Below, piece by piece: positions 1-17,964 of a stretch of 24,534 nucleotides of DNA (position 1 is its first letter; every line of letters begins with the position of its first letter). A program made the translations under genes and the position numbers. The DNA comes from a virus (lineage: Duplodnaviria > Heunggongvirae > Uroviricota > Caudoviricetes), in the IMG/VR virus record IMGVR_UViG_2698536676_000006; one strand, given 5' to 3'. Under the pieces are notes generated by a model. That model ran no database searches, was not told the origin of the DNA, and saw only the letters and a program-made list of their open reading frames with translations.

Positions 1-149
1 GGTTGAGAAGCGGTGTAAGTGAACTGCAGTTGCCATGTTTTACGGCAGTGAGAGCAGAGATAGCGCTGATGTCCGGCGGTGCTTTTGCCGTTACGCACCA
101 CCCCGTCAGTAGCTGAACAGGAGGGACAGCTGATAGAAACAGAAGCCAC
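1..149 (-). CDS. insA: IS1 InsA, 5' partial (GTG start at 149, runs off the window)
   Basis: Reverse complement reads GTGGCTTCTGTTTCTATCAGCTGTCCC..., i.e. [48 protein letters not shown], the InsA N-terminus with its zinc-finger cysteines. Confidence 0.75.
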
Positions 150-204
150 TGGAGCACCTCAAAAACACCATCATACACTAAATCAGTAAGTTGGCAGCAT
201 CACC
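1..204 (-). mobile_element. IS1 left-end fragment (terminal inverted repeat plus insA 5' region); element continues left of the window
   Basis: Bases 1-204 are the exact reverse complement of 24331-24534 and match my recollection of the first 204 bp of IS1 (GGTGATGCTGCCAACTTACTGAT...CACCGCTTCTCAACC). Confidence 0.9.
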
Positions 205-557
205 TCATTCTTGATAAATATAATGTAACAGTCCCTTTAACTGTAAATATAGGGAAAGGCTTTGATATTTCTTATCTCAACAGTGTTGTTATCGGTCACA
301 AAGTAACAATCGGTGAAAATTGTTCAATAAAACCGGGGGTAACTATTGGGCTACGTGGTGATTTTAATGATATGGATATTGTTATAGGACATAATGTGAC
401 CATTGGTTGTAATGCCACCATTCTTGGTGGCAAAGTGCGTATAGGAAACAATGTCACAATAGGTGCTCATGCATTGGTATTGCATGATATTCCTGATGAT
501 TCAACATTCATCACTAAATTTCAGTCTGAAGTTATCTGCTCGTCCTCCCGCACATAA
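205..557 (+). pseudogene. Hexapeptide-repeat (left-handed beta-helix) acetyltransferase, N-terminally truncated by IS1
   Basis: The reading frame is open from the IS1 boundary; translation ...VVIGHKVTIGENCSIKPGVTIGLRGDFNDMDIVIGHNVTIGCNATILGGKVRIGNNVTIGAHALVLHDIP shows repeated [LIV]-G-x-x-x-x hexapeptides. The tool ORF 372..557 is only the part after an internal Met. It sits where P2 carries Z/fun, after the tail fibre assembly gene. Confidence 0.6.
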
Positions 558-1138
558 CCCTGATTCATCAGCTCTGGCCATACGATATCCGGAGCTGTAC
601 TGGTGTCAATTCTACTCACTAATACTCTGTATTTTCTCCAGGAATCCAGTTGTGAATTTTCCTCGTTTGTTGCTATTTCAAGATTAACTGCATCCTGCAG
701 AATTGCGATGTTATCTGTTGCCTCCTGGATCAACCTTGCCTTTTTCTCTTCCGCTTCCCGTATCCGAAACAGCTTTTCTGCTTCCTCATCCTTCACCCAG
801 GATACGCCGTCCCACTTCTGATATTCCCCTGCTGGCGACAACCAGGTGACATTCTCTGGTAGCGGTCCGGGTTCAGAAATAAACAACGCGTCCCCCGATG
901 CCACGTCATAGACCGTTTTACCACGATGGTCTTCAACAATATTCCACGATTCATTTTCACTGTTAAAAATTGCCACAAAGCCAGCAGGAATTTCCGGTGG
1001 GGCGATATCTGTAGAATTAGCTGGCAGCCCTGTATGAGGTGGAATATATGCGTCACCTTCACCAATAAACTCATTAGTTCCGGCCAGCAGGTTATAAATT
1101 TTTACAGTACGTGATTGTTCACTCATTCTGAATGCCAT
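521..1138 (-). CDS. Tail fibre assembly protein (P2 gpG / lambda Tfa-like chaperone)
   Basis: 205 aa; C-terminal ...[23 protein letters not shown] is typical of Tfa chaperones; start codon overlaps the tail fibre stop (TAATG) directly downstream of the fibre gene. Confidence 0.85.
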
Positions 1139-3795
1139 TATGCAAGCCTCACAATATAATTAAATGCGATGTTTTTAACGGTGTTTTCCGCGTTACCAGC
1201 AGCGTTAACGGTGATGGTATGTCCATGTGAACCAATCGCAACAGAGTGCGTATGAGCGCCAATACCAACAGTGTGTGCATGTGCCCCAGCACTTGTAGCG
1301 GTACCTGATACTGAGTGGGTATGTGCGCCAGAAGAAGGCACAGTTCCATTCCCCACCACCGTGCCACTTGATGCACCATCCAGCCAGTCGAAATTCATAC
1401 CGCCACTGTTTGGTCTCCTTAATGGAACGGTATGAGTATGTGCGCCAGCACTATTTGCAGTACCAGATACATTGTGGGTATGTGCACCTGTGTTATTCGT
1501 TGATTTAGTACCGTAATCAAACGAAGATGTGGTTTTCGTACCCAAATCCGTATTGGATGCGCTGGCGCTGTGGGTGTGCGATTTAATGCCATCCTGTTCC
1601 AGAGACAATACGTCCCGACCACTGGCGGGTTTGCCCTTGATTGTCCAGCCACGCATATCCGGGATCACGCCTGACGGATAAGCGGCTGCAAGTTTCGGGT
1701 ATGCAGATTTGTCAAAAGTCTGTCCCTGCATCAGGGCGTAACCAGACGGCACAGTATCTGATGGCCACGGCAGCGGAACACCTGGCGGAAACGCTTCAAT
1801 ATTTGCCGAGCCGTCAAATTTTACGCCGTTAATTGTCCTTGCCGTTTTCAGCTTTGTTGCTGTAGCAGCATTGCCGGATAGTTCGCCTGAAAGACCACCG
1901 CTGAATGTCTGTTTCGCCGCCCATGTCTGAGCTTCGTCGATAATTGGCACACGTCTTGTCGTAATCGTGCGGCTTCCCGGATTTCCTGAAATGCGAACCA
2001 TAAAAAAGCGGTAATTCGCTTTACTTACAGTGCTGCGCCATACATGCATTGAGCGCCCCGTACCAGAATCATCACTCGGACCAACTGCGATGTTTATCAG
2101 GTTGCCATCAATGACGCCCCAGTCCATACCGTCGGGAATATTGGTCATGTTATCAAGCCGAACGGTTATCAGACTGCCCGGCACAAAATCGTAGGTCTGC
2201 CAGTCCAGGCTGGTGAGTTTTGCCACTGCGCCACCGATACCCAGATTCAGGGGAAGTGAATAAGATGTGTAAACTTCCCGCCATTCGCTCCACGAGCTGC
2301 CGGTATAAACGCGCTCAAACGTGCGACCTTTAAGGGTTGCACCTGTTCCGGCGGTTGTATAACGTTGCCATACGTTAACGCCATCAAAGCGCCTCAGCAC
2401 TTCCAGAATACCGAGTACAGTCACGCCGTTTCCGTCCAGTATTGGACCATTGGTCGCTTTACCTGTAACGCTGTAAATACCTGGTGAGGTTACATCATTC
2501 AAATCACCGTCGTAATAACGGCTTTCTGACTGGTAGCCCACTCTTGACCACGGCTCCCATTGTGGGTTCTCTGCATCCCACGAGGCCGAAAGACAGCGAA
2601 CATAAACATTTCCACGGCGGGTCGTGTAACGCTGCGTTCGCGAGTAACCACCACCTTCAAGAACTTCAAGGAGTCCCTGACCATAACTTCCTTCTTCCGG
2701 ATAGTTGCGGTCAAATGAAGCGATTGAGCCACTACTGTTTCGCCATAAACCAAGATGCTCTGCGCCTCCGAGCGTGTTCAGGTCAATGGTTGTGCTCAGG
2801 GGGCGTGTTGCAGACTGAACCTGACGCCAGTAACTCCACGGACCGTCTGAACCATTCCATGTGCCAGAAAGGTTGCGCATATAAACATTGCCTGTTCTGG
2901 TGGTGTAACGCTGCATTCCTGCAAAATTACCGCCATTGAATACCTCCAGTACACCGACTGCACCGTCTTCAGGGAAATTTTTAGCAGCCGTCGCGTTAGT
3001 GGATGTAGCTTTAGACCAGACGCCAAGATAAGCCTTAACGGGACCAAATGTATTCAAGTCAGCATCAAGCGGCATTTCGCCATTGTTTTTCATAAACGTC
3101 AGGCTGGTAACGCCAACATTGTCCAGAAAAGCGCCCTTATCTGGAATATCGTCACCGTTCTGGTCTTTCTGCATACGTTTTTCAGCATTGTCATAGGCTG
3201 CTTTTACTGCCTTTGGCGTTGCCGCCAGCTCTTCACTGGTGCTGTTTGTTGCGCTACTTAACTGAGTAAAACCTTTTTCTGTCAGCGTGGCGTCAGGATG
3301 GCGGCGGGATTGCTCATGCTCTGCGATTTTGTCATCGACGTAATCCTGCGTCGCCATCACTGTGCTGGCATCAATACTCAGCTCAACGGACGCTACGTTG
3401 CTGACAGTAATAACCATGCGGCAGGTCTGCGCGCGCCCGGAGCCTTCAGCGAGTTCAGGCTTATAGCTTTCCGCCATGTTAGCGACCGCAATCAGTGTTC
3501 CGGCATCGTCATACAGACCCAGCTCACGCATCCAGAAGCCGCCCACTTCTGGCGGTACAACCAGTTCAGCCACGATATAGTTTTTATTCTTGTTATCCAC
3601 GCTGACTTTATTCAGAGCGTGACGCCAGACCTCATGCACCAGTTTCGTCTGACCGGCATCCGGCACCGGCAATTTGCCATTACCGTCACCCACGGCCATT
3701 GCAGACAGAGTTACTTTTTTCCCGCCGGGGACAGTGGCGGCTGCCAGCTTCGCGGCTCCGGCAGTAGTGATAGCGGTTTTAAATTTCGTGCTCAT
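1138..3795 (-). CDS. Tail fibre protein (P2 gpH-like N-terminus, mosaic His-rich C-terminal tip)
   Basis: 885 aa; N-terminus [20 protein letters not shown]...[10 protein letters not shown]...[29 protein letters not shown] matches the conserved P2 gpH N-terminal domain; three internal repeats of LEV-x-GG...QRYTTR-x-GNVY-x-R; C-terminal GAHTH-x-VSG repeats. Confidence 0.9.
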
Positions 3796-3805
3796 TGTTT
3801 CTCAC

Positions 3806-4333
3806 TTATCCGGGATAAACAGTAATAACATCACCATCACAGACCACACCGCCTGTATACAGATAGCCGGGAATGTCCTGGATAATGTTCAGGCCGATAA
3901 GGTGGCGACTTGCGGGTTTGGCATCGGCAATCAGCCGTTCCATTTCCAGATACATTTCCTCGGTCACACCACTGTCCAGCGTGCCAACATCAACCTTGAA
4001 TGTTCCGGGTTCGCCGTCGAACTCCCACCACTCAGACACGCGAATGAGGTATCCCAGCGGCTCAATGGCCCGGCGCAGTGCGCTGATGGTCCCTTTGTGT
4101 CGGTGTATCAGCCATGCATCACGAATAACCTGTCGCTTTGTCTCTTCCGGCCAGTTGCGATCCCAGCGGTCAACGGAAAATGCCCAGGCGAGATAAGGCA
4201 GCAGATGCACCGGGCAGGTGTCCGGTGACCACAGCGTGTTGAGGTCTACCGGGATGTTTGTAATGCGCGCTCCGACAGCTTCGGCGCAACGCATGAAATT
4301 GCTGGCTGATGGTGGTAACAGTGAATTACTCAT
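3806..4333 (-). CDS. Baseplate assembly protein I (P2 gpI-like)
   Basis: Follows gpJ in P2 order. I prefer the ATG at 4331-4333, preceded by AAGGTGG and lying 2 nt after the gpJ stop, over the tool's GTG start at 4366. Confidence 0.8.
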   Translation of the reverse strand: MSNSLLPPSASNFMRCAEAVGARITNIPVDLNTLWSPDTCPVHLLPYLAWAFSVDRWDRNWPEETKRQVIRDAWLIHRHKGTISALRRAIEPLGYLIRVSEWWEFDGEPGTFKVDVGTLDSGVTEEMYLEMERLIADAKPASRHLIGLNIIQDIPGYLYTGGVVCDGDVITVYPG

Positions 4334-5222
4334 TACGCCCACCTTCGCTGATGGTGAATGACTCACAGCGCGCCGCCTGTATGTCGCTGATGGCCATATT
4401 CTGTGTGGGTTCGATTATCTCCACGCGTTGCACACCGTGCACATGCAGTGCGGCAGCAATGGCGGACAACGCCACGTCCTGACCGATAAGCCCCTGCTCA
4501 GCCAGCCACTTCCTGAACGACGATTCAGCCGCAGCCAGAATAGGTTCGGATTCCGGGCCGGGATAAAAGTACAGTTTTGCATTCAGCCGCCATGTCACGA
4601 TTCTGGCGCTCTGTACGGTCAGGCGGTCGGCCACCGGGCGGGTATCCTCTGCATTCAGAACGGCACGAACGGTATTAAGCAACGCCTCCGTTGCTGTGCC
4701 GTCGCCTTCAGTGGACAGGATGGAAACCGTCACACAGGCCGGAGACGGGCTGATGGCCCGCGCATCACGCACCAGACCGCTGGCGCTGCGTGCAAAATAC
4801 TCGTATGCACCTGACGGGCCAGCAACACTCAGGCCGTCGTACGCCCGCTGCGCCCGCAGTCTCAGCGAGGTGTCGCTCTCCATCACCGCGTCGGTGGTAT
4901 CCGTTGCCGGAGTGATAACCAGGCGCTTTGTGTTCATATTGCCCGCGAGGTTGTCCAGGTCTGTCCCGGCGCTGTGGCTTAACATGCAGGCGCGTGCACC
5001 CTCATTGACCCGCTGGCGTAACAGCATTTCACGAAACGCTGTTGTCTGGGCGATAACGTTCAGGGGTTCCGATTCCAGCTCCAGCGCAGCGGAAACGGCT
5101 TCACGCTGTTCGGCGGGATAAGCTGCAATCATCATGGCCTTTGTGTCAGCCAGAATTGCTTCAAAGTCAGGCTCCGCGATGATGGCGGGTTCTGGTAACT
5201 GGGAAAGGTCAACGGCGGGCAT
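4326..5222 (-). CDS. Baseplate assembly protein J (P2 gpJ-like)
   Basis: 298 aa; MPAVDLSQLPEP...LESEPL...RQRVNE...RPVADRLTVQSA...LHVHGVQRVEI is collinear with P2 gpJ as I recall it. Confidence 0.9.
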   Translation of the reverse strand: MPAVDLSQLPEPAIIAEPDFEAILADTKAMMIAAYPAEQREAVSAALELESEPLNVIAQTTAFREMLLRQRVNEGARACMLSHSAGTDLDNLAGNMNTKRLVITPATDTTDAVMESDTSLRLRAQRAYDGLSVAGPSGAYEYFARSASGLVRDARAISPSPACVTVSILSTEGDGTATEALLNTVRAVLNAEDTRPVADRLTVQSARIVTWRLNAKLYFYPGPESEPILAAAESSFRKWLAEQGLIGQDVALSAIAAALHVHGVQRVEIIEPTQNMAISDIQAARCESFTISEGGRNE

Positions 5223-5225
5223 GAT

Positions 5226-5576
5226 TTACTCCCTCAGCGTGATGGTTAACTCAACATTCTGCATGGTCTGCATGACAGTGCCCGACAGCGTCACCCCGGC
5301 GCGGCCTCCCGCTTTCCAGACAACGTCAATGGCATCCAGGGCAATGCGGGGTTCCCATCGTGTCAGCGCAATCACGGCAGCACTCATGCATTGCAGACGC
5401 GTGGTGTTATTCATGGGTTCGTCAATCAAATCAGGCACAAGGCTGCCATATTCCCGTCGCATAACCCGGCTTGCCAGCGGGGTGGTCAGGATGTCCCTGA
5501 CTGACTGTTTCAGGTGCTCCATATCGTTCAGGTTTCCCGTTCCGTCCGGGTTCATTCCTGTGTAGCGGGTTGTCAC
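5226..5576 (-). CDS. Baseplate wedge protein W (P2 gpW / gp25 family)
   Basis: 116 aa, MTTRYTGMNPDG...SRVMRREYGSL...; GTG start overlaps the upstream stop (GTGA). Confidence 0.85.
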   Translation of the reverse strand: MTTRYTGMNPDGTGNLNDMEHLKQSVRDILTTPLASRVMRREYGSLVPDLIDEPMNNTTRLQCMSAAVIALTRWEPRIALDAIDVVWKAGGRAGVTLSGTVMQTMQNVELTITLRE

Positions 5577-5980
5577 TGTGGGCCTCCTGTCGAATCGCTG
5601 CCGCCTTTCACGCCACCGTGTTTATGCGTATGCACTGTAATGCCGTTTGAGGTGAAGTTGCCGCCGCTGTGCGTGATATTGCCGCTCATCTTTCCTCCTT
5701 TTGTGACGTCAAGCGTCGCCGTTCTCAGAAGGTTTGTGCATTCCACGACGGGCGTATCCAGTTTCACGCTGACGGATGCCTGTAAAGTGGCCGTTTTCAT
5801 GCCGCTGGCGCTCAGTGCGCCAGCGTCCGCGTCGTAGCGGAACACCGCGCCGTCCGGCGCGCTGATCACGATTTCTTTCAGGCTTTTGCCGGGGGCCGGA
5901 CTGGCATCACTCCACAGGCTGCCAATTATCATGGCGGTTACGGCGATCTGTGCCGTCATAACTGGTATTCGTGCGCGCAA
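5573..5980 (-). pseudogene. Baseplate spike gpV, C-terminal fragment, fused out of frame to the capsid remnant
   Basis: ISAPDGAVFRYDADAGALSASGMKTATLQ...KLDTPVVECTN...GGKMSGNITHSGGNFTSNGITVHTHKHGG resembles the C-terminal half of P2 gpV; the N-terminal half is missing. Confidence 0.7.
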
Positions 5981-6218
5981 TCGGCCCGGTGGTGTCCAGG
6001 AGAACTTTTTCGCCTTTCTGGTCAGTTACACCGATTACATTAATTCTTTTCGTAAATTCGGTACTTTCCTTTGAAGCGTTTTCAAAACGCTGTTGTACCG
6101 ATGGATTGACGGTAAATCGCGATACCAGCGCAGAAACCGGGATATTGTTAAGCGACGCCTGCTGCGTCATGTAGCAGCCCAGCTTGTTACGGGCATTATC
6201 TGACATCACCAGATTCAT
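5907..6218 (-). pseudogene. Major capsid protein gpN, N-terminal fragment (about 90 codons), junction with gpV at roughly 5930-5980
   Basis: RFTVNPSVQQRFENASKESTEFTKRINVIGVTDQKGEKVLLDTTGPIARTNTSYDGTDRR parallels the P2 gpN N-terminus; homology stops and the frame overlaps the gpV fragment, implying loss of N(3')-M-L-X-Y-K-R-S-V(5'). Confidence 0.7.
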
Positions 6219-6241
6219 AAAAAATTTGCTCCTTTGTCTTA

Positions 6242-7078
6242 TCAGAAGTCAGCCAGCTGATCGGAGGCTGCGCCCGTTGCGGTGAACCGGTTCTGTGGAT
6301 CGCCGTCCTGCGTGCGCAGTTTTTCCTTCAGTGCTGTCAGCTCTGTGGTCAGTGACGTGATTTTCTGACGGTCCTGCTTATGGCGGGCTTCCAGCACATT
6401 AAAACGGTCGATAATGTCGGCCTGTGACGTTGCGACGCCTTCCACCGCTTCCTGAATACGGGAAAAACTGGCGTCATCCGCTTTGCGGCCACGGCCAATA
6501 ATCCCCATTACGCGGTTAAACCACTGGGTGCCTTCTTCCTGGCGTTGTTCTGCCATTTCGATGATTTCAGACTCAATGGCTTCGGAGATAAGCGGCGCTT
6601 CACCCTGGATACTGTTGAACGTCATCACCGCCTGACGTTGCTGTGCCGTGAATTTCAGGCGCTCAGTGCCCAGGCTTGCCGGGGTGTCGGTCATCGCCAG
6701 CCCGACCAGATAGGCGCGCCCGTTAACGGAGAACTGCGGGTGCAGTTCGATACTGGAATAGATTTTCTTGCCGTCAGCGACAAGCTGCTTCATGCGCTCG
6801 GTCGGTTCGATTTCTGCATACAGCGCAGTACGTCCGGCCAGCGGGCCTTCCGTAATATCTTCCGTACTCAGCGCGGTGACATCGCCCATTGCGGAAAATT
6901 CGCTTGACGGGCATGGCGAGAGATAGTGCTCAACGTTCACGCGGGCAGCGTAAACATCCGGGTTGAAGTTCTCGGCGGCTTCACGCAGATGTACCGGGCT
7001 GATTTCGCGGCCATCAACAGTTGATCCGGAGACAGCCACGCGAAACTTTTTGCGGGATGTCTTTTTTTCATTAGCCAT
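6242..7078 (-). CDS. Capsid scaffolding protein (P2 gpO-like)
   Basis: MANEKKTSRKKFRVAVSGSTVDGREISP...YLVGLAMTDTPASLGTE resembles P2 gpO; ATG at 7076-7078 with GAGGGG upstream is preferred over the tool start at 7111. Confidence 0.85.
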   Translation of the reverse strand: MANEKKTSRKKFRVAVSGSTVDGREISPVHLREAAENFNPDVYAARVNVEHYLSPCPSSEFSAMGDVTALSTEDITEGPLAGRTALYAEIEPTERMKQLVADGKKIYSSIELHPQFSVNGRAYLVGLAMTDTPASLGTERLKFTAQQRQAVMTFNSIQGEAPLISEAIESEIIEMAEQRQEEGTQWFNRVMGIIGRGRKADDASFSRIQEAVEGVATSQADIIDRFNVLEARHKQDRQKITSLTTELTALKEKLRTQDGDPQNRFTATGAASDQLADF

Positions 7079-7232
7079 AGTTTTTGCCCCTCTGACTGGT
7101 TCTTCAGTCATGATGGCAAAGCGTAACAGGCTGATACAAAGGGCTTTTGTTGTAAGAAAACGGCCAGAACAGGGGGTTAAGGAGAACGGTTTCGCGCGCG
7201 GGTAATCTTCCTGTAATTACTCAGGGGGAGCA

Positions 7233-8495
7233 ATGATTCAGGACGCTTTTGTGCGCCAGCGTGCGCGGCAACTTTACTGGCAGGGTTATCCGCCCGCAGA
7301 AATATCACGTCTGATGGGAATAAACCCGAACACGATTTATGCGTGGAAAAAACGCGACCAGTGGGATGAAACGCCCCCCGTGCAGCGTGTCACGCAGTCC
7401 ATCGATGCGCGCCTCATCCAGCTTACTGAAAAACAGAATAAAACAGGCGGTGACTTTAAGGAAATAGACCTGCTGACCCGGCAGCTTAAAAAGCTGCATG
7501 ATGGCCAGCCGGATGTGATGGCCGCAGGAAAGAAAGGCCGGGCGAAAAAACTTAAAAATCATTTCACGCCGGAACAGATTGCCGCACTGCGGGAAAAAAT
7601 CATCAGCAGGCTGGAGTGGCATCAGCGGGGCTGGTTTGACTCCCTGACACTTTGCAGGGAAGCCGGGATACGTAACAGGATGATCCTGAAATCCCGACAG
7701 ATTGGGGCGACCTGGTATTTTGCACAGGAAGCTCTGCTGATGGCGCTGCGTGACGATGTGGCGCAACCTTACCAGCGTAACCAGATTTTTTTGTCTGCGT
7801 CGCGTCGTCAGGCGTTCCAGTTTAAAAGCATTATTCAGAAGGTCGCGGCTGAAGTTGATGTGGAGCTGAAAGGGGGCGATAAAATCATCCTCTCCAACGG
7901 CGCAGAGCTGCATTTTCTCGGCACTTCTGCTGCGTCGGCACAGTCCTATACGGGCAATTTTTATTTTGATGAATTTTTCTGGGTCAGTCGCTTTGCTGAA
8001 CTGCGCAAGGTGGCTGGCGCTATGGCAACCCTCAGCGGACTGCGGCGCACCTACTTCTCCACGCCATCCACCGAAACGCACGAGGCGTACGCCTACTGGA
8101 ACGGCGACCGCTGGAACGAGAAAAAGGCCTCGCATAAACGCCAGCGTTTTTCTGTGGACTGGAAAACGCTGCATAACGGGCTTATCTGCCCTGACCGGAC
8201 TTGGCGGCAAATTGTCACGCTGGAAGATGTGGTTAATCACGGCTGGAAACACACCGATATCGACGAAATTCGTGATGAAAACACCGAAGACGAGTTCCTC
8301 AATCTCTATATGTGTGAGTTTGTCCGCGAAGGGGAATCGGCATTTAACCTGAATATCCTGATTGGCTGCGGTGTTGACGGATACGACGACTGGAAAGACT
8401 GGAAACCTTTTGCTCCCCGCCCGATGGGGAATCGTCCGGTATGGATTGGGTATGACGCAAACGGCAGCAGTGGCAACGGCGACATGCCAGCTTGA
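7233..8495 (+). pseudogene. Terminase ATPase subunit (P2 gpP-like), C-terminally truncated
   Basis: 420 aa with N-terminal ...LYWQGYPPAEISRLMGINPNTIYAWKKRDQWDE; P2 gpP is about 590 aa as I recall. The ORF ends shortly after VWIGYDA, and portal Q, cos and the tin/old region expected between P and A are absent. Confidence 0.75.
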
Positions 8496-8560
8496 TGTTG
8501 GTGGAGCCGTCGTCGATACAAATTTTCATGTCGCTTTTCCTTATGTTGATTAATTAATCG

Positions 8561-8670
8561 TTTACGGGATTCTGAAATCCCGTTTTTGCCTGTTTTATGC
8601 GCGCTTCATATATCGCGGCGCGTTTTTTGCTCATTTACGGGATTTGTGAATCCCGTTTCTGTCTGTTTTT
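8561..8670 (+). repeat. Two diverged direct repeats (8561-8596, 8634-8670), each an 8-bp-stem hairpin ACGGGATT-N4-AATCCCGT followed by a T-run
   Basis: Read directly: tttacgggattctgaaatcccgtttttgcctgtttt and tttacgggatttgtgaatcccgtttctgtctgttttt. Confidence 0.6.
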
Positions 8671-11428
8671 TGTTTCCACTGGTCAGGCCACCCCGCAGCA
8701 GGTCTGCTTTGCGGTGGGCGCGTTCAGTTGTTTCACTGATTCTCTGTGCGTGCTCTGCGTCGCGGATGGCGCGCAGCATGTCAGAAAGTACGGTAACGGG
8801 TGTTTTCATGGTGTTCTGGTCTTGCTGAAGTGTGGATGCCAGGCGTGCGGCGGCTTCATGGTCTGATGCCCTTAGTTGTTCCAGATAGCCGGCGACCGGG
8901 TTATGGCGGATCTCCGTGCTGCTTACGCCGTGATTACGGCTCAGGCGCTGCCAGAGCTGCGTGATTCGGCTGTCCGGGCGGGTATCCGGTTTGCGTACAA
9001 TTTCAAATCCCTGCGGTGCAATGATGCTGCCGTCAACGTACAGGCTGCCGCCCCGTAACAGGTGCTGCATCTGCTGTTCACCGATATGCAGGCCGAGAGA
9101 TTCGGCAGATTCCCGCCATTCTTTAGCGAGTAATTCGTGGTTATCAGGCAAAGGCCGCTGCTGTTTGCGGCTCTGTGTCCAGCTCTGCATTTCATCACTG
9201 CTGTTTTTTGCCTGTTTGTCACGCAGCGAACGCATCAGCGCCCGGCGTTCGTGCCGTTTCAGTGAGCGCATCCAGTCATCCACATCAACGCCGTCAGGAA
9301 GCTGCGGCCACAGTGCTGGCCGTTCTTCCGGCTGTTCTGTCCCGTTGTTGTCCGTTTCCTGTACACGGGGACAGTTATTGCCACGAGTCCAAGGGGCGGC
9401 AGGGCCGCCCTGAAGGTCAAAACCATTTTCGTGGGCGTTGTCTTCCGGTTCTGGTTTACGTCTTACCAGCTTCCAGTTATCCGGATGCGTGCACACACGG
9501 GAGGATTCCCCGATGAGTGGTGACCAGATCCCGTAAATCTGTACGCTCTGTTCGCCGTAATCGTTCAGCTCATCTGCGAGGTCGTAGGCGGTGCGAATCA
9601 GGTAGTCCTTGCGTGGAACAAGCACGCCACCCTGTTTTTCAATGTAGGTGGCAAAACACCCGGCATCGGCGGCAGCGAGTACCGCATCCATTGCATCATC
9701 TTTCAGCCGTTGCGGGCCTTCCGGATTGCGTGCCATCTGGCTGGCAAGGCGGCGCAGTTCACGCCACACCTGACGGGAGGGGATGCCAAAGAACTGGAAC
9801 TGACGGACCCGGTGAAGGCGCGCCCAGCCGATGGCGCGCTCCACGCTCTCGGCCATTGATTTTCCGGTTTCGTGGTCAACGCGTGGCTTGCCCGTTTTCG
9901 GGTCGATGCCATCCACGGCGCGGCTGTCCAGGTTCTTTCCGATGTAGGTGGCGATGTAGCTGGTTGGTGTGCCTTTTGAGCCGTCGACATACTCCGCCTT
10001 AAAACGCGGAGTTATGTCATCGCCCAGCTCGTGGCGGTCCTCCTGAATGGCAATATCGCAGACGTGGGACACGATGGTTTCAATCTCGTCCGGATGTGCA
10101 AAGACCATCATATGCCAGTGCACAGTGCCGTCATGGTGAGGCTCCACCGTGCGGATGCCATACCAGCGCAGGCCGTCGCGGTTCAGTTTTTTGCGGACCG
10201 CCGCAAAAAACGTGTTAACCAGGTAATCGCTGGAGTCGCGCATGGTGGCCCCGTTCCATTTGGGGTTCGGATGACCGTTCTCCGTTGTTGCGTGGTATTT
10301 TGACGGGCAGGTGACGGTCAGAAACACCGCTCTGTCGCCACGGGCTTCGGCCAGAAGTTCCAGTCCCTTCATGGTGGCCATCATTTCTGCCTTACGGTGA
10401 ACCGGGTTACTTACTCCCGCGTAATACACCGTCTCGAGATCAATCGTGAACCCGTCTTCATTTTCCAGCATGAAACTTTTCAGGAAATCGCGTGTTTTCT
10501 CGCGCTGTGCGCGAAACTCGCTTAACGCGTCCTGGCTCAGATAGGGGGATGTTTTTCTGGAAACCAGACAGGCGGCGCGGAGTTGTTCTTCCCGCCACTC
10601 ACAACGTAACAGCCACAGTTTGCGTTTCCACCATTCCGCACAGGTCAGGCGAAGGATTGCGCCCGGCAGCAGCTCCGTGTCCGGTTCGTTCCTCCGGTCT
10701 TTGTCTGTTGTCAGTGCGTCATAATGTGGAGGCATGGCGTGCAGGTGTAACGCCATGCGGGCCAGCATCTGATAAGCCTTCAGCGTTACATCCATGGTCA
10801 GCTCGCCATCAGTCGCGCCAAAGCCATCGCAGAGTTTTTCGAAGGTGCTGCTGAACATCGCCGCCGTCATGGTGGCCAGCGTCTGTATCTGGTGTTTGTT
10901 GAGCTGCGGCAGGTAAAGCAAATCATCCAGGCGTTCGCGTCCGGCAAGGGAGCGATAACCCGGTGTCAGCCAGCGGTGGTCGGTGCGGTCCAGACGTTCG
11001 AATATTTTGCGCAGGGTTCCGCACGCGTAGCGTTCAGCCTGCCAGCTCTTGTTGCCTTTCCGGCGATCGGCTTCCTGTTTTTTGCGCAGGAAGGAGAGGT
11101 GGCGAATAAGCGGATCGCGCAGATAGGACGGCAGCAGGCGCAGCGAGGCCATGGCTTCATCCACCGCGCCACGTGCCTGTTTTCTGGCGTCTCCTGCCAG
11201 TGTGATGGTTTTGTCCTGTTTTTCCTGTGCGTCCAGGCTTTTATTAATCAGGTTGCCCAGCGGCGTGGCGGAGAACGCCGCATCAGCCATTTCCTGGCGG
11301 CGCTCGTTCTCTGCCCGGTAGGCATCCAGCCAGGAGGAAAGCGCGGATTCAGGAGCGGGGATCCCCGTTCCTTCACGCCCCACTGCGTGGCGCGGTTGTT
11401 GCCAGTCCCTGATGTACTCTGCCGTCAT
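8606..11428 (-). CDS. Replication initiation endonuclease (P2 gpA-like, HUH rolling-circle nickase) with a C-terminal extension
   Basis: 940 aa; ...TVTCPSKYHATTENG...GIRTVEPHHDGTVHWHMMVFAHPDE... matches the P2 gpA catalytic core (HUH motif HWH). About 180 aa longer than P2 gpA (761 aa as I recall); the last codons run through the 8634-8670 hairpin. Confidence 0.85.
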   Translation of the reverse strand: MTAEYIRDWQQPRHAVGREGTGIPAPESALSSWLDAYRAENERRQEMADAAFSATPLGNLINKSLDAQEKQDKTITLAGDARKQARGAVDEAMASLRLLPSYLRDPLIRHLSFLRKKQEADRRKGNKSWQAERYACGTLRKIFERLDRTDHRWLTPGYRSLAGRERLDDLLYLPQLNKHQIQTLATMTAAMFSSTFEKLCDGFGATDGELTMDVTLKAYQMLARMALHLHAMPPHYDALTTDKDRRNEPDTELLPGAILRLTCAEWWKRKLWLLRCEWREEQLRAACLVSRKTSPYLSQDALSEFRAQREKTRDFLKSFMLENEDGFTIDLETVYYAGVSNPVHRKAEMMATMKGLELLAEARGDRAVFLTVTCPSKYHATTENGHPNPKWNGATMRDSSDYLVNTFFAAVRKKLNRDGLRWYGIRTVEPHHDGTVHWHMMVFAHPDEIETIVSHVCDIAIQEDRHELGDDITPRFKAEYVDGSKGTPTSYIATYIGKNLDSRAVDGIDPKTGKPRVDHETGKSMAESVERAIGWARLHRVRQFQFFGIPSRQVWRELRRLASQMARNPEGPQRLKDDAMDAVLAAADAGCFATYIEKQGGVLVPRKDYLIRTAYDLADELNDYGEQSVQIYGIWSPLIGESSRVCTHPDNWKLVRRKPEPEDNAHENGFDLQGGPAAPWTRGNNCPRVQETDNNGTEQPEERPALWPQLPDGVDVDDWMRSLKRHERRALMRSLRDKQAKNSSDEMQSWTQSRKQQRPLPDNHELLAKEWRESAESLGLHIGEQQMQHLLRGGSLYVDGSIIAPQGFEIVRKPDTRPDSRITQLWQRLSRNHGVSSTEIRHNPVAGYLEQLRASDHEAAARLASTLQQDQNTMKTPVTVLSDMLRAIRDAEHAQRISETTERAHRKADLLRGGLTSGNKKQTETGFTNPVNEQKTRRDI

Positions 11429-11434
11429 AGTGAT

Positions 11435-11800
11435 TTACTTCGTCATGCCATTCAGGGTGTCGCGGCAGACTGTAGCCAGCCGCTGAATTTCCAGCACGGT
11501 GTCTTCTGTGTCGGCATGGCGATGTGTGATGCGGATGCTGTCGGCAATCACATCGACGATTGCAGAGGATGGGCGCTGGTAAATGCCAATAACGGACGGG
11601 GTGCCACCTTCAATGCGGTAAAGCCTGTAATTTCCCTCGTGGCTGTCAATCATGTAGCGACCATCAATAACAATCTTTCCGTCAGCGAGCTGCGGTACAG
11701 GCAGGGATTTCAGGTACATGTCATAACGATCACGCACGCGAGCGGCAAGATCTCGTTCTGTGTTGAGCAGGTATTCAAGAAAGTCGTTGGCGAGAATCAT
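11435..11800 (-). CDS. Hypothetical early-operon protein (121 aa) directly upstream of gpA
   Basis: ATG with AGAGGA Shine-Dalgarno; 6-bp gap to the gpA start. Confidence 0.6.
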   Translation of the reverse strand: MILANDFLEYLLNTERDLAARVRDRYDMYLKSLPVPQLADGKIVIDGRYMIDSHEGNYRLYRIEGGTPSVIGIYQRPSSAIVDVIADSIRITHRHADTEDTVLEIQRLATVCRDTLNGMTK

Positions 11801-11872
11801 TGCGGCAATCCTCTTGTTACAGATGTGCGAAGGCCTCCCGCCGCAAGGTGCAGGAAAGGCCCGGAACAGGAA

Positions 11873-12103
11873 TTAATGGAGTTTGTTTTGCTGCTGGATG
11901 AGCTGTTGAAGCTCGTGCAGATCATCCGCCAGATAGCTGAAAACAGAGGCGGAATAAATGTTTGATAGTGCGTGGCTGCGCTCATGCAGCATATTGATGT
12001 GCATGATTTGCGCGACGCGTGATGCGCGGGAAAGTCTGTGGTTGATTTCAGTCTGGATGTGACGACGCTCCGCGATAGTGCGGTGCTGTTTGCGGTCTGC
12101 CAT
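11873..12103 (-). CDS. Hypothetical early-operon protein (76 aa, basic, no Cys)
   Basis: ATG at 12101-12103 with AGAGG upstream; no recognisable domain. Confidence 0.5.
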   Translation of the reverse strand: MADRKQHRTIAERRHIQTEINHRLSRASRVAQIMHINMLHERSHALSNIYSASVFSYLADDLHELQQLIQQQNKLH

Positions 12104-12425
12104 GGTGTGGCCTCTTTGCTCGGTGATAGAAATAACTCACCATCCAGAGTTGAGAATCTCGGGGTGGCGAGACGTACAGGGTTCTCAACACCGGAGAGCA
12201 AAGAATCCGGCCCGACCGAAGTCGGCCCCGTACGCCCCGCCATAATTCTGACGCGAAAAAGACGTGGCAATACAGTGCGCACAAAAAAACCGCTTGCGCG
12301 GTTATGCGCTTTGCTCTGTATCGGGTTGAGAATCCCGGCACCCGTTTTATGAGCTGCAGCGGAAATGTAACCTGACCGATTGAGGCATGGCAAGCGGTTT
12401 TTTTGTGTGTGCATGTTCTGGTTTC
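12104..12425. other. Structured non-coding gap inside the early operon: nested direct and inverted repeats; candidate ncRNA or regulatory/origin-like element
   Basis: GTTGAGAATC[T/C]CGG at about 12150 and 12325, inverted partner GTTCTCAAC at about 12175; CTTTGCTCT / AGAGCAAAG copies; 18-bp inverted repeat cacaaaaaaaccgcttgc at 12281-12298 and 12391-12408; hairpins TCTCG-N6-CGAGA, CCGGA-N9-TCCGG, GGCCCGAC-cgaa-GTCGGCC. Confidence 0.4.
12283..12310 (-). terminator. Candidate rho-independent terminator (AACCGC-gcaa-GCGGTT then TTTTTTTG on the minus strand)
   Basis: Plus strand reads caaaaaaaccgcttgcgcggtt; on the minus strand the hairpin is followed by a 7-T run. Confidence 0.5.
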
Positions 12426-12725
12426 TTACTGGTTCAGAAAAAAATCAAAAACGTTATCGATGCGTTGCAGCAGCTCTTGCTGCATTGCTTCCGGCGTTTC
12501 CGGTTCGCCAGGTGCCCCCAGCGTTGCGCAGAAATCAGCGATTTCATGATGGAGCGTGAGGCGAATGGCAGGAGCCGTGGTTCTGGCGTGCTCCAGCTGA
12601 TCCAGCAGTGCCAGCACAGCAGACGGCGAGAGCATTGCGCGAAATGCCAGTAATTTTTGAGGCGTTGCCATTCGTTGCAGGGCAAATGCCAGTTCGTGTA
12701 GCTTCTGGTGGTTGATGGTGCTCAT
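12426..12725 (-). CDS. Hypothetical protein (99 aa)
   Basis: ATG with GAAGGAAG Shine-Dalgarno; start overlaps the upstream stop (ATGA). Confidence 0.55.
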   Translation of the reverse strand: MSTINHQKLHELAFALQRMATPQKLLAFRAMLSPSAVLALLDQLEHARTTAPAIRLTLHHEIADFCATLGAPGEPETPEAMQQELLQRIDNVFDFFLNQ

Positions 12726-13188: not shown

Positions 13189-13242
13189 TGCGCCCCCTTT
13201 GTCCAGTAACCCTATGCGTTAAATACGGCACATTGCGCGTCA

Positions 13243-13629
13243 TCAATGAATACAGCTTGAGAGCGTTCTATCAGGCGGAGATTTGTCAGAAGCTCTGACT
13301 CTTTTGTGTGGTAAGGCGTTATCAGGTATTTGCCGTGCAGTTCGGCAATAATGGTGTATTGCAGCATCATTGCTGAACCAAGAATATAAAATGCAGCGTC
13401 CAATGCTGGACGGATTCATGGCTGCAACTGTTGACTGTGTTTTAAGAGTGTCGATTTCTTTGCTCTGTTCCTCAATAACTTTGGCTGCTTCAGAGGCGGC
13501 TATTGCGATGGTCAGTGCGTAAAGCGCTGCCATATGTTGATTATCTTTCTGGGCTGCCCTGGACAGCTTGTCTTGCTCTGCTGACACTATTTTTAATGTA
13601 TTGATAATATTTTTTTCTTTTGCGTTCAT
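13243..13629 (-). CDS. Hypothetical protein (128 aa); N-terminal half coiled-coil-like, C-terminal half possibly frameshifted
   Basis: Strong start (GGAG then ATG at 13627-13629); a 63-aa ORF in another frame (13212-13403, TTG start) overlaps the 3' half. Confidence 0.45.
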   Translation of the reverse strand: MNAKEKNIINTLKIVSAEQDKLSRAAQKDNQHMAALYALTIAIAASEAAKVIEEQSKEIDTLKTQSTVAAMNPSSIGRCILYSWFSNDAAIHHYCRTARQIPDNALPHKRVRASDKSPPDRTLSSCIH

Positions 13630-13721
13630 TTTATATCTCCGTTATTTACGTGTGCGAATACCTCCGCGAATGCGGATAGTTTTCAGGTTTTCGGGTTTAA
13701 TCTGGTGTTTTGTTTAAGCTG

Positions 13722-14074: not shown

Positions 14075-14085
14075 CGCAACGCCCT

Positions 14086-14364: not shown

Positions 14365-14374
14365 AAAGCACCTG

Positions 14375-14725: not shown

Positions 14726-14746
14726 GATGGTGCTCTGTTCATTGTT

Positions 14747-14950
14747 TTAGCTGTTAGCCAAAGCGTCTTTTAACATCGCCACAAGGTTTACTTCAGGCTT
14801 TTCCATTTTGGCGCGTTTGGGGCGGATAATAATTCGACCGTCAGCCAACATCTTTTTGCATGTATTAAGAGGGATACCTGTTATCTCTGCATATTTCTGC
14901 AGGGATACATAGGGGGCATTCACATTGATATTGATGGTTATACCTGACAT
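14747..14950 (-). CDS. Cox/Apl-like excisionase-type HTH regulator
   Basis: 67 aa; ...APYVSLQKYAEITGIPLNTCKKMLADGRI... resembles the P2 Cox HTH region as I recall it; correct position in the early operon. Confidence 0.6.
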   Translation of the reverse strand: MSGITININVNAPYVSLQKYAEITGIPLNTCKKMLADGRIIIRPKRAKMEKPEVNLVAMLKDALANS

Positions 14951-14966
14951 CCCACTAGCCTCCTGA

Positions 14967-15173
14967 TCAGGAAGATTTGTTTTGTTCTTTCTGGGTTAGC
15001 TCTAGGCCGCGAAGGAAGATCATGCGCGCCATGTTAGAGGATGAGCGTTGTTCTTTAGCTGCCATTTCATCAATGACGGCTCGCTCCTCGAGGGACAGCC
15101 GAAGTGCCAGTCTTGGACCTGTGGCGGTGTTACGCGGAATGCGTGATCTGGTATCGTGAAGAACTTGTTTCAT
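14967..15173 (-). CDS. Putative ribbon-helix-helix regulator, first gene of the early leftward operon
   Basis: 68 aa; LALRLSLEERAVIDEMAAKEQRSSSNMARMIFLRGL fits the RHH beta-strand/helix pattern; no clear Shine-Dalgarno. Confidence 0.5.
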   Translation of the reverse strand: MKQVLHDTRSRIPRNTATGPRLALRLSLEERAVIDEMAAKEQRSSSNMARMIFLRGLELTQKEQNKSS

Positions 15174-15248
15174 AGTGGTATATTGTGATCATCTAATAGC
15201 TCGTGAAATCATTTGGTATCAAAAAAGATACCTGTCAAGGTTTTTTGT
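15174..15248. promoter_or_regulatory. Immunity-switch intergenic region between divergent early operon and repressor; 18-bp palindrome GGTATC-aaaaaa-GATACC (15215-15232) as candidate operator
   Basis: Perfect palindrome read directly; a TTGACA hexamer on the minus strand (15233-15238) abuts it. Confidence 0.5.
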
Positions 15249-15653
15249 ATGAAAAATGATATTGGTCAGCGGTTGCGTGAGGAAAGGGAAAGATTGGGAC
15301 TTAGTCAAGTTGCCATGAGCGACATTGGTGGAGTCAAAAAGCTAACTCAGCTTAGATATGAGAAAGGAGATAGCTTTCCTGATGCTGCGTATTTGGCAGC
15401 GCTGTCTCGTTTTGGCCTTGATGTTCAGTATGTTGTGTTGGGAATTCACTCACCTGAAACTTATAACGATGATGAGCAGGAGTTGATTACTCGCTTTCGA
15501 GCAGCTTCGTTAGATGTGAAAAACGCGGTGATTGGGGCTTTAAAAGGTGCGATCAGTGAAAAGGAAACTCAGCCATCAGGACGTGAGTTAAATATTTCTG
15601 GTGGTAATAACCGTATCGCTGGTCGTGACTATAACGAAACTAAGGGTAGGTGA
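15249..15653 (+). CDS. CI/C-type immunity repressor (XRE-family HTH)
   Basis: MKNDIGQRLREERERLGLSQVAMSDIGGVKKLTQLRYEKGDSFPDAAYLAALSRFGLDV is a canonical XRE HTH; ATG at 15249 preferred over the tool's TTG at 15213; integrase-proximal, divergent from the early operon. Confidence 0.75.
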   Translation: MKNDIGQRLREERERLGLSQVAMSDIGGVKKLTQLRYEKGDSFPDAAYLAALSRFGLDVQYVVLGIHSPETYNDDEQELITRFRAASLDVKNAVIGALKGAISEKETQPSGRELNISGGNNRIAGRDYNETKGR

Positions 15654-15668
15654 TAGTAGGGAGGTGAC

Positions 15669-16701: not shown

Positions 16702-17703
16702 ATGTCGGTTCGTAAGATTCCATCAGGTAAATGGCTTTGCGAATGTTATCCCTACGGGGCATCGGGAAAACGCATTCGTAAACAGTTTGCGACAAAAAGT
16801 GAGGCGCTCTCTTATGAGCGCCGTTTAATGAATAGTAGAGTTGGAGACGAGTTTCAAGATGGTTCTGGTCCTCGTCTTTCTGAGTTGATTGCTCGTTGGT
16901 TTGAGATGTACGGTAAAACCTTGTCCTCTGGTGCAGAGCGCAAAGTCAAACTTGAGGCGATTTGTTCCAGGCTGGGAGATCCATTTGCTTCTCAGTTTGA
17001 CAAAAATATGTTTGCCACTTATCGGGAAAGAAGGTTATCAGGAGAGTGGAATCCCAAGGGGAAGAAAAAACTTAGTGAAGCAACCGTTAATCGCGAGCAG
17101 TCATATCTACATGCTGTTTTTGCCGAACTGAAGCGCCTTGGGGAGTGGTCTGGTGAAAACCCCCTGACTGGTATTCGCAAGTTTCGTGAGGAAGAAAAGG
17201 AACTGGCGTTTCTGTATGTAGATGAGATTGAACGCCTTCTGATTGCGTGTGATGAGTCACGGAATAAAGATTTGGGGGTTGTTGTCCGTATTGGGCTTGC
17301 GACTGGTGCTCGGTGGAGTGAAGCAGAAGGGTTAAAGCAATCTCAAGTACTGCCCGGTCGAATCACATTTGTTAAAACTAAAGGAAAGAAGAACCGCACT
17401 GTACCGATTTCACCTCAATTGCAGGCTATGCTTCCCAAAAAACGAGGAGCGCTATTTTCACCATGTTATGAGGCTTTTGACGCTGCAATTAAGAGAGCGA
17501 AGATCGAGCTTCCTGATGGGCAATTAACTCATGTGCTACGTCACACGTTTGCCAGTCATTTTATGATGCGGGGCGGAAATATTCTTGTGTTGCAAAAAAT
17601 ACTGGGGCATAGCGATATAAAAATGACTATGCGTTATGCGCATTTTGCTCCAGGTCATTTAGAGGCTGCTGTTGAATTGAACCCTTTTGACAATAGAGGG
17701 TAA
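16702..17703 (+). CDS. int: P2-type tyrosine integrase
   Basis: 333 aa; TGARWSEAEGLK, ITFVKTKGKKNRTVPIS, HVLRHTFASHFMMRGGNILVLQKILGH, YAHFAPGHL align with P2 Int as I recall it. Confidence 0.9.
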   Translation: MSVRKIPSGKWLCECYPYGASGKRIRKQFATKSEALSYERRLMNSRVGDEFQDGSGPRLSELIARWFEMYGKTLSSGAERKVKLEAICSRLGDPFASQFDKNMFATYRERRLSGEWNPKGKKKLSEATVNREQSYLHAVFAELKRLGEWSGENPLTGIRKFREEEKELAFLYVDEIERLLIACDESRNKDLGVVVRIGLATGARWSEAEGLKQSQVLPGRITFVKTKGKKNRTVPISPQLQAMLPKKRGALFSPCYEAFDAAIKRAKIELPDGQLTHVLRHTFASHFMMRGGNILVLQKILGHSDIKMTMRYAHFAPGHLEAAVELNPFDNRG

Positions 17704-17809: not shown

Positions 17810-17864
17810 TTTAAAATCCCTCGGCGTTCGCGCTGTGCGGGTTCAAGTCCCGCTCCGGGTACCA
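17810..17864 (+). tRNA. 3' fragment (about 55 nt, from the anticodon loop to CCA) of tRNA-Leu(UAA), leuZ-like; integration-site core, not a complete tRNA
   Basis: TTTAAAATCCCTCGGCGTTCGCGCTGTGCGGGTTCAAGTCCCGCTCCGGGTACCA: T-arm GCGGG-TTCAAGT-CCCGC, long variable arm, acceptor 3' strand plus ACCA; no 5' half upstream. Confidence 0.65.
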
Positions 17865-17905
17865 TGGGAAAGACAAGAATAATCAAAGCAATAAGCAGTG
17901 TCGTG

Positions 17906-17930
17906 AAACCACCTACGGGTGGTTTTTTTG
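17906..17930 (+). terminator. Rho-independent terminator (AAACCACC-tacg-GGTGGTTT plus T-run)
   Basis: Read directly from sequence. Confidence 0.6.
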
Positions 17931-17964
17931 TGCCTGAAATTCACGCCCTGTGCATATCCTGTGC

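Follow-up and report, generated by a model that had tools for sequence, protein, structure and literature searches.

A cryptic P88-like prophage with two internal deletions at leuZ of ETEC strain L1_E925

The 24,534-nt stretch of DNA analysed here (the window) carries P2-type phage genes of which some break off part-way, raising the question of whether it belongs to an active phage or to a defective prophage and, if the latter, which genes were lost and by what route. The initial annotation proposed a defective P2-like prophage with two internal deletions, one joining N to V and the other joining P to A with loss of Q and the neighbouring hotspot. Alignments with phage P88 and with sister prophages bear this out, and none of the results speaks against it. 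The region is almost certainly the middle of a cryptic P88-like prophage (P2 family, Peduoviridae, probably genus Xuanwuvirus), integrated at leuZ in an ETEC strain and carrying two illegitimate-recombination deletions.

Setting and relatives of the prophage

The window matches positions 1990232-2014765 of NZ_LR883050.1, the chromosome of E. coli ETEC L1_E925 (E925), with 100% identity, and its 5400-8900 portion has a single matching locus per genome. In the E925 record, PGAP already marks V, N and P as incomplete pseudogenes. Since the E925 genome paper listed only intact prophages (PMC8085198), the P88-like remnant was not described there.

Pfam matches above gathering score were obtained for Phage_GPO, Phage_cap_P2, Terminase_5/6N, Phage_GPA, Phage_spike/Apex, GPW_gp25, Baseplate_J and Tail_P2_I, all of them families of P2 hallmark proteins. 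The late genes follow the order of the family (divergent P and O-N, then V-W-J-I-H-G) and, two gaps aside, the ORF map is collinear with those of P88 and three other prophages. Homologues in P2 and 186 comprise the head genes Q, P, O, N, M and L, the baseplate and fibre genes V, W, J, I, H and G, gpA, ogr, a Cox-type switch and a tyrosine integrase, with equal late-gene order, in keeping with the Pfam families above. Neither P2 nor 186 gave a megablast-level DNA match among the phage hits; the junctions, which the initial annotation had meant to place on these two genomes, were mapped on P88 and E. coli prophages instead. The prophage differs from P2 and 186 in the cargo downstream of A (parM-type versus tin/old), in the presence of an anti-repressor with C4 and isrK RNAs (Rfam scores of 78.5 and 59.5 bits, respectively) and in the opposite orientation of the FI-U module.

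The closest phage is Escherichia phage P88 (NC_026014 / KP063541; Xuanwuvirus P88, Peduoviridae), which has the same gene order and is functional and mitomycin-inducible (PMC5285337). Nucleotide identity to P88 is 96.5-97.3% over J-W-V', N'-O-P' and parM'-A-early genes (approximately 7.5 kb of late genes and A), to the left and right of each junction alike; part of the early genes reaches 85-91%. Neither the tail fibre nor the immunity/integrase module aligns with P88, and to a remnant that is both deleted and mosaic the whole-genome genus threshold is inapplicable. In both elements the FI-U tail module (outside the window) lies on the strand opposite to V-G; an inversion of FI-FII-E-T-U was considered and discarded, this layout being normal in P88. 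P88 is complete, whereas segments of 4,975 and 3,997 bp are missing from the window. The two elements further differ in their tail fibre (H/G), their repressor/Cox/integrase module and their attachment site, and where P88 has the invertase and alternative fibre segment the window has an acetyltransferase cargo gene.

An apparently intact prophage of E. coli 99-3165 (NZ_CP029981) likewise occupies leuZ. Its integrase, repressor and DUF2511 accessions are identical to those in the window, its Cox-position protein has equal length and another accession, and the immunity-to-island region is 98.9% identical. Unlike in the window, V, S, R, the lysis genes, X, L, M, N, P, Q and parM are all complete there; the late region is just 89-94% identical and includes a different tail fibre, with an invertase.

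Integration is evident from the integrase gene and, next to it, a direct repeat of 122-124 nt that copies the 3' end of leuZ and whose left copy lies beside leuZ, outside the window; the repeat has matches at the tRNA-Leu loci of essentially every E. coli genome. The match of 17810-17931 to 5745-5868 was also considered as a displaced piece of N and rejected: of the two records compared, the one matched is the locus L002, at its leuZ attachment repeat. At the other end, the IS1 (annotated at L002 14669-15436) has the 9-bp target duplication TCATTCTTG, and a second, inverted IS1 copy is found at 24331-24534. The intact acetyltransferase, present in another compared locus (L007), is a 181-aa protein with Hexapep domains.

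Table 1. Features of the prophage region. Coordinates are those of the window. Genes H, G, W, J and I, the repressor and the integrase were scored as full length from an accession shared with a PGAP-complete counterpart in another prophage.
Feature	Coordinates	Strand	Remarks
IS1 end, inserted in cargo acetyltransferase gene	1..204		Context only, outside both deletions
Hexapeptide-repeat acetyltransferase, 3' fragment	207..557	+	Z/fun-type cargo position; IS1-disrupted; PGAP pseudogene
Tail fibre assembly gene (gpG-like), intact	521..1138	-	Pfam Caudo_TAP; same accession in E143 and FDAARGOS_1077
Tail fibre gene (gpH-like, 885 aa), intact	1138..3795	-	Pfam Phage_tail_fib, Phage_fiber_2, Collar; WP_001397297.1 in sister prophages
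Baseplate gene I, intact	3806..4333	-	Pfam Tail_P2_I; accession shared with E143
Baseplate gene J, intact	4326..5222	-	Pfam Baseplate_J; accession shared with E143
Baseplate gene W (gp25-like), intact	5226..5576	-	Pfam GPW_gp25; accession shared with E143
V', last 122 of 188 codons of baseplate spike gene V	5573..5939	-	No start codon; E143 100% identical to 5939
Deletion junction 1	5938..5939		Microhomology TT (GGTT versus P88); three-way alignments
N', first 93 of 350 codons of major capsid gene	5940..6218	-	Out-of-frame reading onward to stop at 5907
Capsid scaffold/protease gene O, intact	6242..7078	-	Pfam Phage_GPO; WP_001262650.1 also in E143 and FDAARGOS_1077
P', first 417 of 583 codons of large terminase gene	7233..8484	+	ATPase domain retained, nuclease lost; E143 100% identical to 8484
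Deletion junction 2	8483..8484		Microhomology CA; alignments to P88, E143 and sister allele C
parM', first 15 codons of partition ATPase gene	8485..8529	-	Translation MKICIDDGSTNIKLA matches intact ParM of compared locus L008
Replication initiator gene A (940 aa), intact	8606..11428	-	Pfam Phage_GPA; length same as P88 gp16
Anti-repressor module	11873..12357	-	Derepression protein gene 11873-12103 (Pfam Derepression), C4 antisense RNA 12160-12247, isrK RNA 12283-12357
Frameshifted early ORF	13212..13629	-	PGAP 'frameshifted' in each of seven sister prophages examined for annotation
Cox/Apl-position DNA-binding gene, full length	14747-14950	-	Part of lysis-lysogeny switch 14747..15653
HTH repressor gene, full length	15249-15653	+	HTH match below Pfam gathering score
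Tyrosine integrase, intact	16702..17703	+	Pfam Int_N, Phage_integrase; WP_001300279.1 as in 99-3165
Right attachment repeat, copy of tRNA-Leu (leuZ) 3' part and downstream sequence	17810..17931	+	96.8% identical to L002 5745-5868

The two deletion junctions

At junction 1, the ORF spanning 5907-6218(-) specifies 93 residues identical to the N-terminus of the intact 350-aa P2-family capsid protein, followed by ten out-of-frame residues and a stop. The V' segment retains the Phage_spike and Apex domains and is devoid of the N-terminal OB domain PF04717 (Pfam). Because the late region of E143 is 100% identical over 205-5939 and, on the other side, over 5938-8484, this junction is fixed to the nucleotide. 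The proposal that some 90 codons of N run out of frame into the C-terminal half of V is thus made exact. The deletion measures 4,973 bp relative to FDAARGOS_1077 and 4,975 bp relative to P88, and removed the 5' part of V, S, R, the LysC/LysB-type spanins, an M15 endolysin, the holin, X, L, M and the 3' part of N. In gene list and position, the loss had been anticipated essentially correctly, as N(3')-M-L-X-Y-lysis-R-S-V(5').

At junction 2, the ORF at 7233-8495(+) contains 417 native terminase codons, close to the 420 or so first estimated, then three foreign codons (MPA) and a stop; the Terminase_6C nuclease domain (aa 405-566 of the intact 583-aa protein) is lost. Contrary to the initial annotation, P is not directly followed by gpA: between the two lie 47 nt from the start of parM plus the parM-A spacer, with 76 nt of spacer separating the parM' fragment from the stop codon of the intact gpA at 8606. 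Measured against sister strain 2014EL-1346-6, the deletion amounts to 4,061 bp; against P88, to 3,997 bp. It comprises the 3' part of P, portal gene Q, the presumed cos region and the hotspot content, namely hypothetical genes, a ClpX-zinc-finger gene, a parR-like gene and nearly all of parM. Hence Q is missing as first proposed, but the lost cargo is of the parM type and not tin/old. The loss of cos is presumed from synteny and from the start points of two related phage records, which lie about 0.4 kb past the portal gene, i.e. within the deleted segment. With up to 3 mismatches allowed, a search with a P2 cos 19-mer came up empty in the window and in P88, and none of the other loci matched it.

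Compared with a functional relative, N, V and P are therefore all truncated (to 93 of 350, 122 of 188 and 417 of 583 codons), and M, L, X, the holin, endolysin and spanin genes, R, S and Q are absent. It is exceedingly improbable that the two junctions are assembly artefacts from collapsed or mis-joined contigs in one genome: of 5,426 complete E. coli genomes, 5 have junction 1 and 9 have junction 2, identical in each set, these genomes having been sequenced separately and coming from different countries. Moreover, the junction sequences are unique, with no repeats able to cause collapse.

Identity with E143 falls from 100% to 96.4% exactly at position 8484, a pattern that would fit a hybrid crossover between two P88-like prophages at junction 2. 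Against this, same-lineage sister strains 2014EL-1346-6 and B2C still carry the 4,061 bp absent from the window, a segment that sister allele C keeps; their left flank is 100% identical and their right flank shows 2-5 mismatches in 11-16 kb (99.95-99.98%). With the intervening segment held between near-identical flanks, simple deletion explains junction 2. The boundary of the E143-type/E925 mosaic falls inside the deleted cargo region, and junction 2 offers just 2 nt of homology. A later insertion of the segment into the sisters is implausible, because with it P, Q and parM are complete and in frame. On the sister-strain sequence we reject a crossover, to which we assign practically no probability.

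The two deletions are almost certainly independent illegitimate recombination events: microhomology is limited to 2-4 nt, and neither site bears an IS scar. Together they removed approximately 9 kb from an ancestor estimated at 35.4 kb.

Sister alleles and the order of events

Sister ETEC genomes differ by 0-5 mismatches over approximately 30 kb of shared prophage, flanks and island, yet carry other deletions; at least three further deletion patterns of the same prophage occur in these near-identical strains. Strain E2386 has junction 2, yet retains 738 nt of gene M that junction 1 removed in E925, which identifies junction 2 as the older event. The first step was deletion 2 (P-3' to parM-5'), which cost the prophage its terminase nuclease domain, its portal gene and the usual site of cos in the family. 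In the second step, deletion 1 (V-5' to N-3') took the lysis cassette, the head completion and small terminase genes and most of the capsid gene, as well as X, R and S of the tail and the domain by which spike V binds the hub.

Alleles B and C have additionally lost J, W and I, and E2386 the 3' end of the tube gene, E, T, U, G, H, the immunity genes and the integrase. Three separate alleles have lost the lysis and head region and retained H and G. In approximately eleven near-clonal ETEC genomes (0-5 point changes over about 30 kb), at least seven junctions are found. The stop codon of gene M served as breakpoint twice, to the nucleotide; a candidate hairpin at this shared breakpoint folds no better than shuffled sequence (z = 0.10). 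The E925 remnant represents one stage of a continuing deletional decay.

Gene content and significance of the remnant

Full-length genes left in E925 include the integrase, repressor, Cox-position, anti-repressor and gpA genes, the tail sheath, tube and tape-measure genes, U, D, ogr and the tail fibre genes. An 801-nt annotation made D appear truncated, a reading we rejected: the DNA is identical to the 1,110-nt full-length D of another strain and the start-codon call alone differs. The initial annotation had taken the tail fibre, baseplate, replication, immunity and integrase genes to be intact; this is correct for H, G, W, J, I, A, the repressor and the integrase and fails for the baseplate spike, V being truncated. 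Tail genes X, R and S are absent besides. Judged from its genes, the remnant would have no means of forming heads, packaging DNA, finishing tails or lysing the cell; immunity, excision and replication are the most that could be expected of it. Neither the O-P spacer nor the sequence upstream of V contains an Ogr-type TGT-N12-ACA box, a sigma-70 and terminator scan was uninformative, and PADLOC, run on the neighbouring island and the prophage morons, returned a WYL-domain regulator only.

Like R-type tailocins, the remnant has a P2-type tail and fibre set and no working head module. We considered that it might be a domesticated headless derivative (an R-type tailocin or a tail-fibre reservoir under selection) and not neutral debris. 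In its favour, E925 has full-length genes for sheath, tube and tape measure and full-length U, D, ogr, W, J, I, H and G, and the repeated loss of lysis and head genes with H and G kept points the same way. However, V has lost its OB domain, nothing is left of X, R, S or any lysis gene (holin and endolysin included), and head-gene debris persists: the useless fragments N' and P', like parM', remain next to an intact O, together with phage integration and replication genes. The losses of J, W and I in alleles B and C, and those of E2386, are also at odds with such a role: losses so varied leave no module consistently protected. The retained genes are approximately 100% identical between strains, too recent to reveal purifying selection. 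Overall, domestication seems very unlikely. The element is also unlike a phage satellite (P4-like/PICI-like), being a collinear subset of a P88-type phage that includes gene fragments and from which the expected cos segment is deleted.

The prophage is an ordinary, apparently dead remnant, its head, DNA-packaging and lysis genes gone through two clean deletions. In cryptic ('grounded') prophages, packaging, head and lysis genes are lost by deletion, the integrase and tail fibre are kept and IS elements insert; nothing essential differs here. Loss of packaging and lysis genes with retention of tail fibre and integrase is typical of incomplete prophages (PMC7744054), and the decay pattern of cryptic prophages has likewise been described (PMC6379469). 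The P2-type region of E925 is a routine cryptic prophage of a kind already known.

There is little import beyond correct annotation: in ETEC lineage strains such as E925, the P2-type region is best regarded as a non-inducible remnant and not as an active phage. The modest extra over the usual cryptic prophages lies in having the ancestor and several alternative decay states at approximately 100% identity. Recurrent microhomology deletions might conceivably be non-neutral, reflecting host selection against a prophage that, after junction 2, would have been SOS-inducible and lethal though non-productive, so that its lysis and morphogenesis region was quickly and repeatedly eliminated; we regard this as a rather unlikely reading. 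If it were true, the lineage would offer a natural series with dates, from which to measure how fast prophages are 'grounded' and what drives the process. In any event, the sister alleles, on a nearly unchanged sequence background, are a tidy example of stepwise prophage decay, and the allele set could serve as a lineage marker or to calibrate deletion against substitution rates.

Two deletion junctions in the leuZ prophage

All 24,534 bases of the window match enterotoxigenic E. coli L1_E925 (chromosome NZ_LR883050.1, 1990232-2014765) at 100% identity. As predicted in the initial annotation, the P2-like prophage found there is defective and carries two internal deletions, N'-V' (junction 1) and P'-parM' (junction 2; primes denote truncated genes). 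When 160-nt junction-spanning probes were compared with 5,426 complete E. coli genomes, junction 1 was found in five genomes and junction 2 in nine, every match being 100% identical; in the remaining genomes each probe matched over one half only. Thus, both junctions are real.

Features of the window. Coordinates are window positions.
Feature	Position	Strand	Remarks
IS1 end, left	1-204		inverted relative to right copy
Most of P2-family prophage	205-17931
Tail fibre assembly gene G	521-1138	-	Pfam
Tail fibre gene H	1138-3795	-	Pfam
Baseplate genes I, J, W	3806-5576	-	Pfam
V fragment	5573-5939	-	Pfam
N fragment	5940-6218	-	Pfam
Scaffold gene O	6242-7078	-	Pfam
Terminase P fragment	7233-8484	+	Pfam
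Replication gene A	8606-11428	-	Pfam
Early genes, then repressor and Cox-position switch	14747-15653 (switch)
Integrase	16702-17703	+
Right attachment repeat	17810-17931		partner copy adjoins leuZ, outside window
Separate, unrelated integrase island	about 17932-24330
Island integrase, 409-aa	18897-20126
Island DUF2787 protein	within 17932-24330
Island DUF726/LCAT-like hydrolase	22543-23361
Island WYL/WCX-domain HTH regulator	23423-24325
IS1 end, right	24331-24534		inverted relative to left copy

At junction 1, the start of capsid gene N runs out of frame into the 3' part of V, as first read. The first 93 residues of the ORF at 5907-6218 match the N terminus of the intact 350-aa capsid protein exactly; ten out-of-frame residues and a stop follow. 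Positions 5573-5939 are in frame with the final 122 of the 188 V codons. V' keeps the spike-trimer and apex motifs and lacks the OB domain PF04717, which occupies residues 9-76 near the N terminus of full-length V. Because the late region of a related prophage in strain E143 is 100% identical to both 205-5939 and 5938-8484, the join was placed at the dinucleotide TT (5938-5939). The loss amounts to 4,975 bp relative to phage P88 and 4,973 bp relative to the related prophage of strain FDAARGOS_1077. It removes V-5', S, R, LysC, a DUF2570 gene at the LysB position, an M15 endolysin gene, the holin gene, X, L, M and N-3', largely in agreement with the N(3')-M-L-X-Y-lysis-R-S-V(5') loss originally proposed.

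At junction 2 (join CA, 8483-8484), the P frame comprises 417 native codons followed by Met-Pro-Ala and a stop. Compared with the intact 583-residue protein, P' has lost the RNaseH-like nuclease domain (405-566). The truncation of P had been recognized, but the 3' end of gpA does not follow directly: 45 bases corresponding to the first 15 parM codons (minus strand) and a 76-nt spacer precede the gpA stop codon. Two near-identical hairpins with 8-bp stems, ACGGGATT-N4-AATCCCGT, lie at 8564-8583 and 8637-8656 on either side of this codon, one within the A-parM spacer and the other in the 3'-terminal part of A; possibly they form a terminator or represent a repeat.

Identity to E143 falls from 100% to 96.4% at junction 2, which raised the possibility of a hybrid crossover. 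This was ruled out, since sister strains 2014EL-1346-6 and B2C retain the missing 4,061 bp between near-identical flanks (left flank 100% identical; right flank with 2-5 mismatches in 11-16 kb). The segment contains P-3', portal Q, a hypothetical gene, a ClpX-zinc-finger gene, a parR-like gene and parM. Portal Q is thus gone, as anticipated, but the lost cargo consists of the latter four genes and not of a tin/old hotspot. Both junctions show microhomology of 2-4 nt, and no IS remnant is present at either; short microhomology without an IS remnant is a signature of illegitimate recombination.

Relatives and residual gene content

The best phage match is P88 (Xuanwuvirus), 96.5-97.3% identical on either side of both junctions and described as mitomycin-inducible and plaque-forming (PMC5285337). 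P2 and 186, initially proposed as references for alignment, were absent among the megablast phage matches. The sheath-to-U block runs in the opposite direction, as in the usual P88 layout. Strain 99-3165 harbors an apparently complete 36-kb prophage at the same tRNA-Leu (leuZ) site, with integrase and repressor proteins of identical accession. With both deleted segments restored and IS1 taken out, the ancestor is estimated at about 35.4 kb. Between repressor and integrase, two moron-like genes (15669-16696, +), both conserved in the 99-3165 prophage, encode a DUF2511 protein and a 216-aa protein annotated there as a membrane protein, to which neither Pfam nor PADLOC assigned a function.

The G, H, I, J, W and O proteins have accessions identical to those of E143 and FDAARGOS_1077, where they are complete according to PGAP; gpA equals P88 gpA in length, and the 99-3165 prophage has matching repressor, DUF2511 and integrase proteins. 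Beyond the window, the same prophage has ogr, D, sheath, tube, E, tape measure and U. For gene D (7444-8553 in L002, the E925 locus record), RefSeq gives a CDS of 801 nt, labelled "VgrG/Pvc8 family", both in E925 and in several sister genomes. Truncation or mutation was rejected: the DNA is identical to the 1,110-nt full-length D of strain 254D-1, and the discrepancy is one of start-site annotation. Damaged genes are V, a frameshifted early ORF (13212-13629) and an acetyltransferase cargo gene split by IS1. The claim that the retained genes are intact therefore holds for tail fibre, gpA, repressor, integrase and W/J/I but not for the baseplate, since V is truncated.

Judging from gene content, the remnant should form no heads and package no DNA, as capsid, portal, small terminase and terminase nuclease are lacking; the region of the expected cos, predicted to lie in the 4.06-kb segment lost at junction 2, is also missing. 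Loss of X, R, S and the V hub domain would preclude functional tails, and loss of holin, endolysin and spanins, cell lysis. The remnant could still confer immunity and might excise or replicate. On the minus strand (11873-12357), a "derepression protein" gene (11873-12103) has a C4 antisense RNA (12160-12247) and the isrK Hfq-binding RNA (12283-12357) directly upstream; this set, inside a P2-family prophage, resembles the antisense-controlled anti-repressor module of P1/P7.

IS1 copies and the adjoining island

The left IS1 is a simple insertion in the acetyltransferase gene, flanked by a 9-bp target duplication (TCATTCTTG), and is absent from strains 2014EL-1346-6, B2C, FORC_031, 254D-1 and 360D-1; the related E143 and FDAARGOS_1077 prophages lack it as well. 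Past the right IS1, E925 diverges from FORC_031 and 254D-1; in those two strains, a type I restriction-modification S subunit comes next. The difference suggests an IS1-associated rearrangement. The island abuts the duplicated leuZ end and occurs directly at tRNA-Leu in other strains; apart from the WYL regulator, it matched no PADLOC defence model.

Deletion alleles in sister strains

Comparison of sister genomes (L008-L013) with 205-17931 revealed at least four deletion alleles of the leuZ prophage among near-identical ETEC genomes, those with other alleles differing from E925 by 0-5 mismatches across the approximately 30 kb of prophage, flanking and island sequence that they share. Allele B (FORC_031, 254D-1, 360D-1) combines junction 2 with a J'-O' junction. 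Strains 2014EL-1346-6 and B2C (allele C) lack junction 2 and carry I'-M' and N'-P' junctions. In allele D (E2386), junction 2 is accompanied by FII'-M' and M'-O' junctions, and immunity genes, integrase and attR have been lost next to IS1. Since E2386 has junction 2 yet keeps 738 nt of M that junction 1 removes, junction 2 is the older. More distant relatives carry deletions of their own (N-M in E143, S-M in strain 300709). Altogether, at least seven independent microhomology junctions occur across the leuZ alleles, with short microhomology at every junction inspected.

The I'-M' and FII'-M' junctions have different left partners and a right breakpoint identical to the nucleotide, TA|ACCGCGC at the stop codon of the small-terminase gene M (14310-14318 in the allele C genome, L008; 11805-11806 in E2386, L013; both corresponding to 15388-15390 in the related-prophage locus, L007). 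This could reflect a hotspot, coincidence or recombination between lineages; DNA folding at the breakpoint was no better than that of shuffled sequence.

The initial observation is correct, as is the main reading of it, with four points amended: which phage is closest, which cargo was lost, the presence of a parM remnant and the state of the baseplate. The E925 genome paper listed intact prophages only (PMC8085198). This is a routine cryptic prophage, whose pseudogenes RefSeq already flags, and its pattern of loss agrees with the one that incomplete prophages are reported to show typically (PMC7744054). No module is retained across all alleles, which speaks against the element having been domesticated as a tailocin or fibre reservoir.
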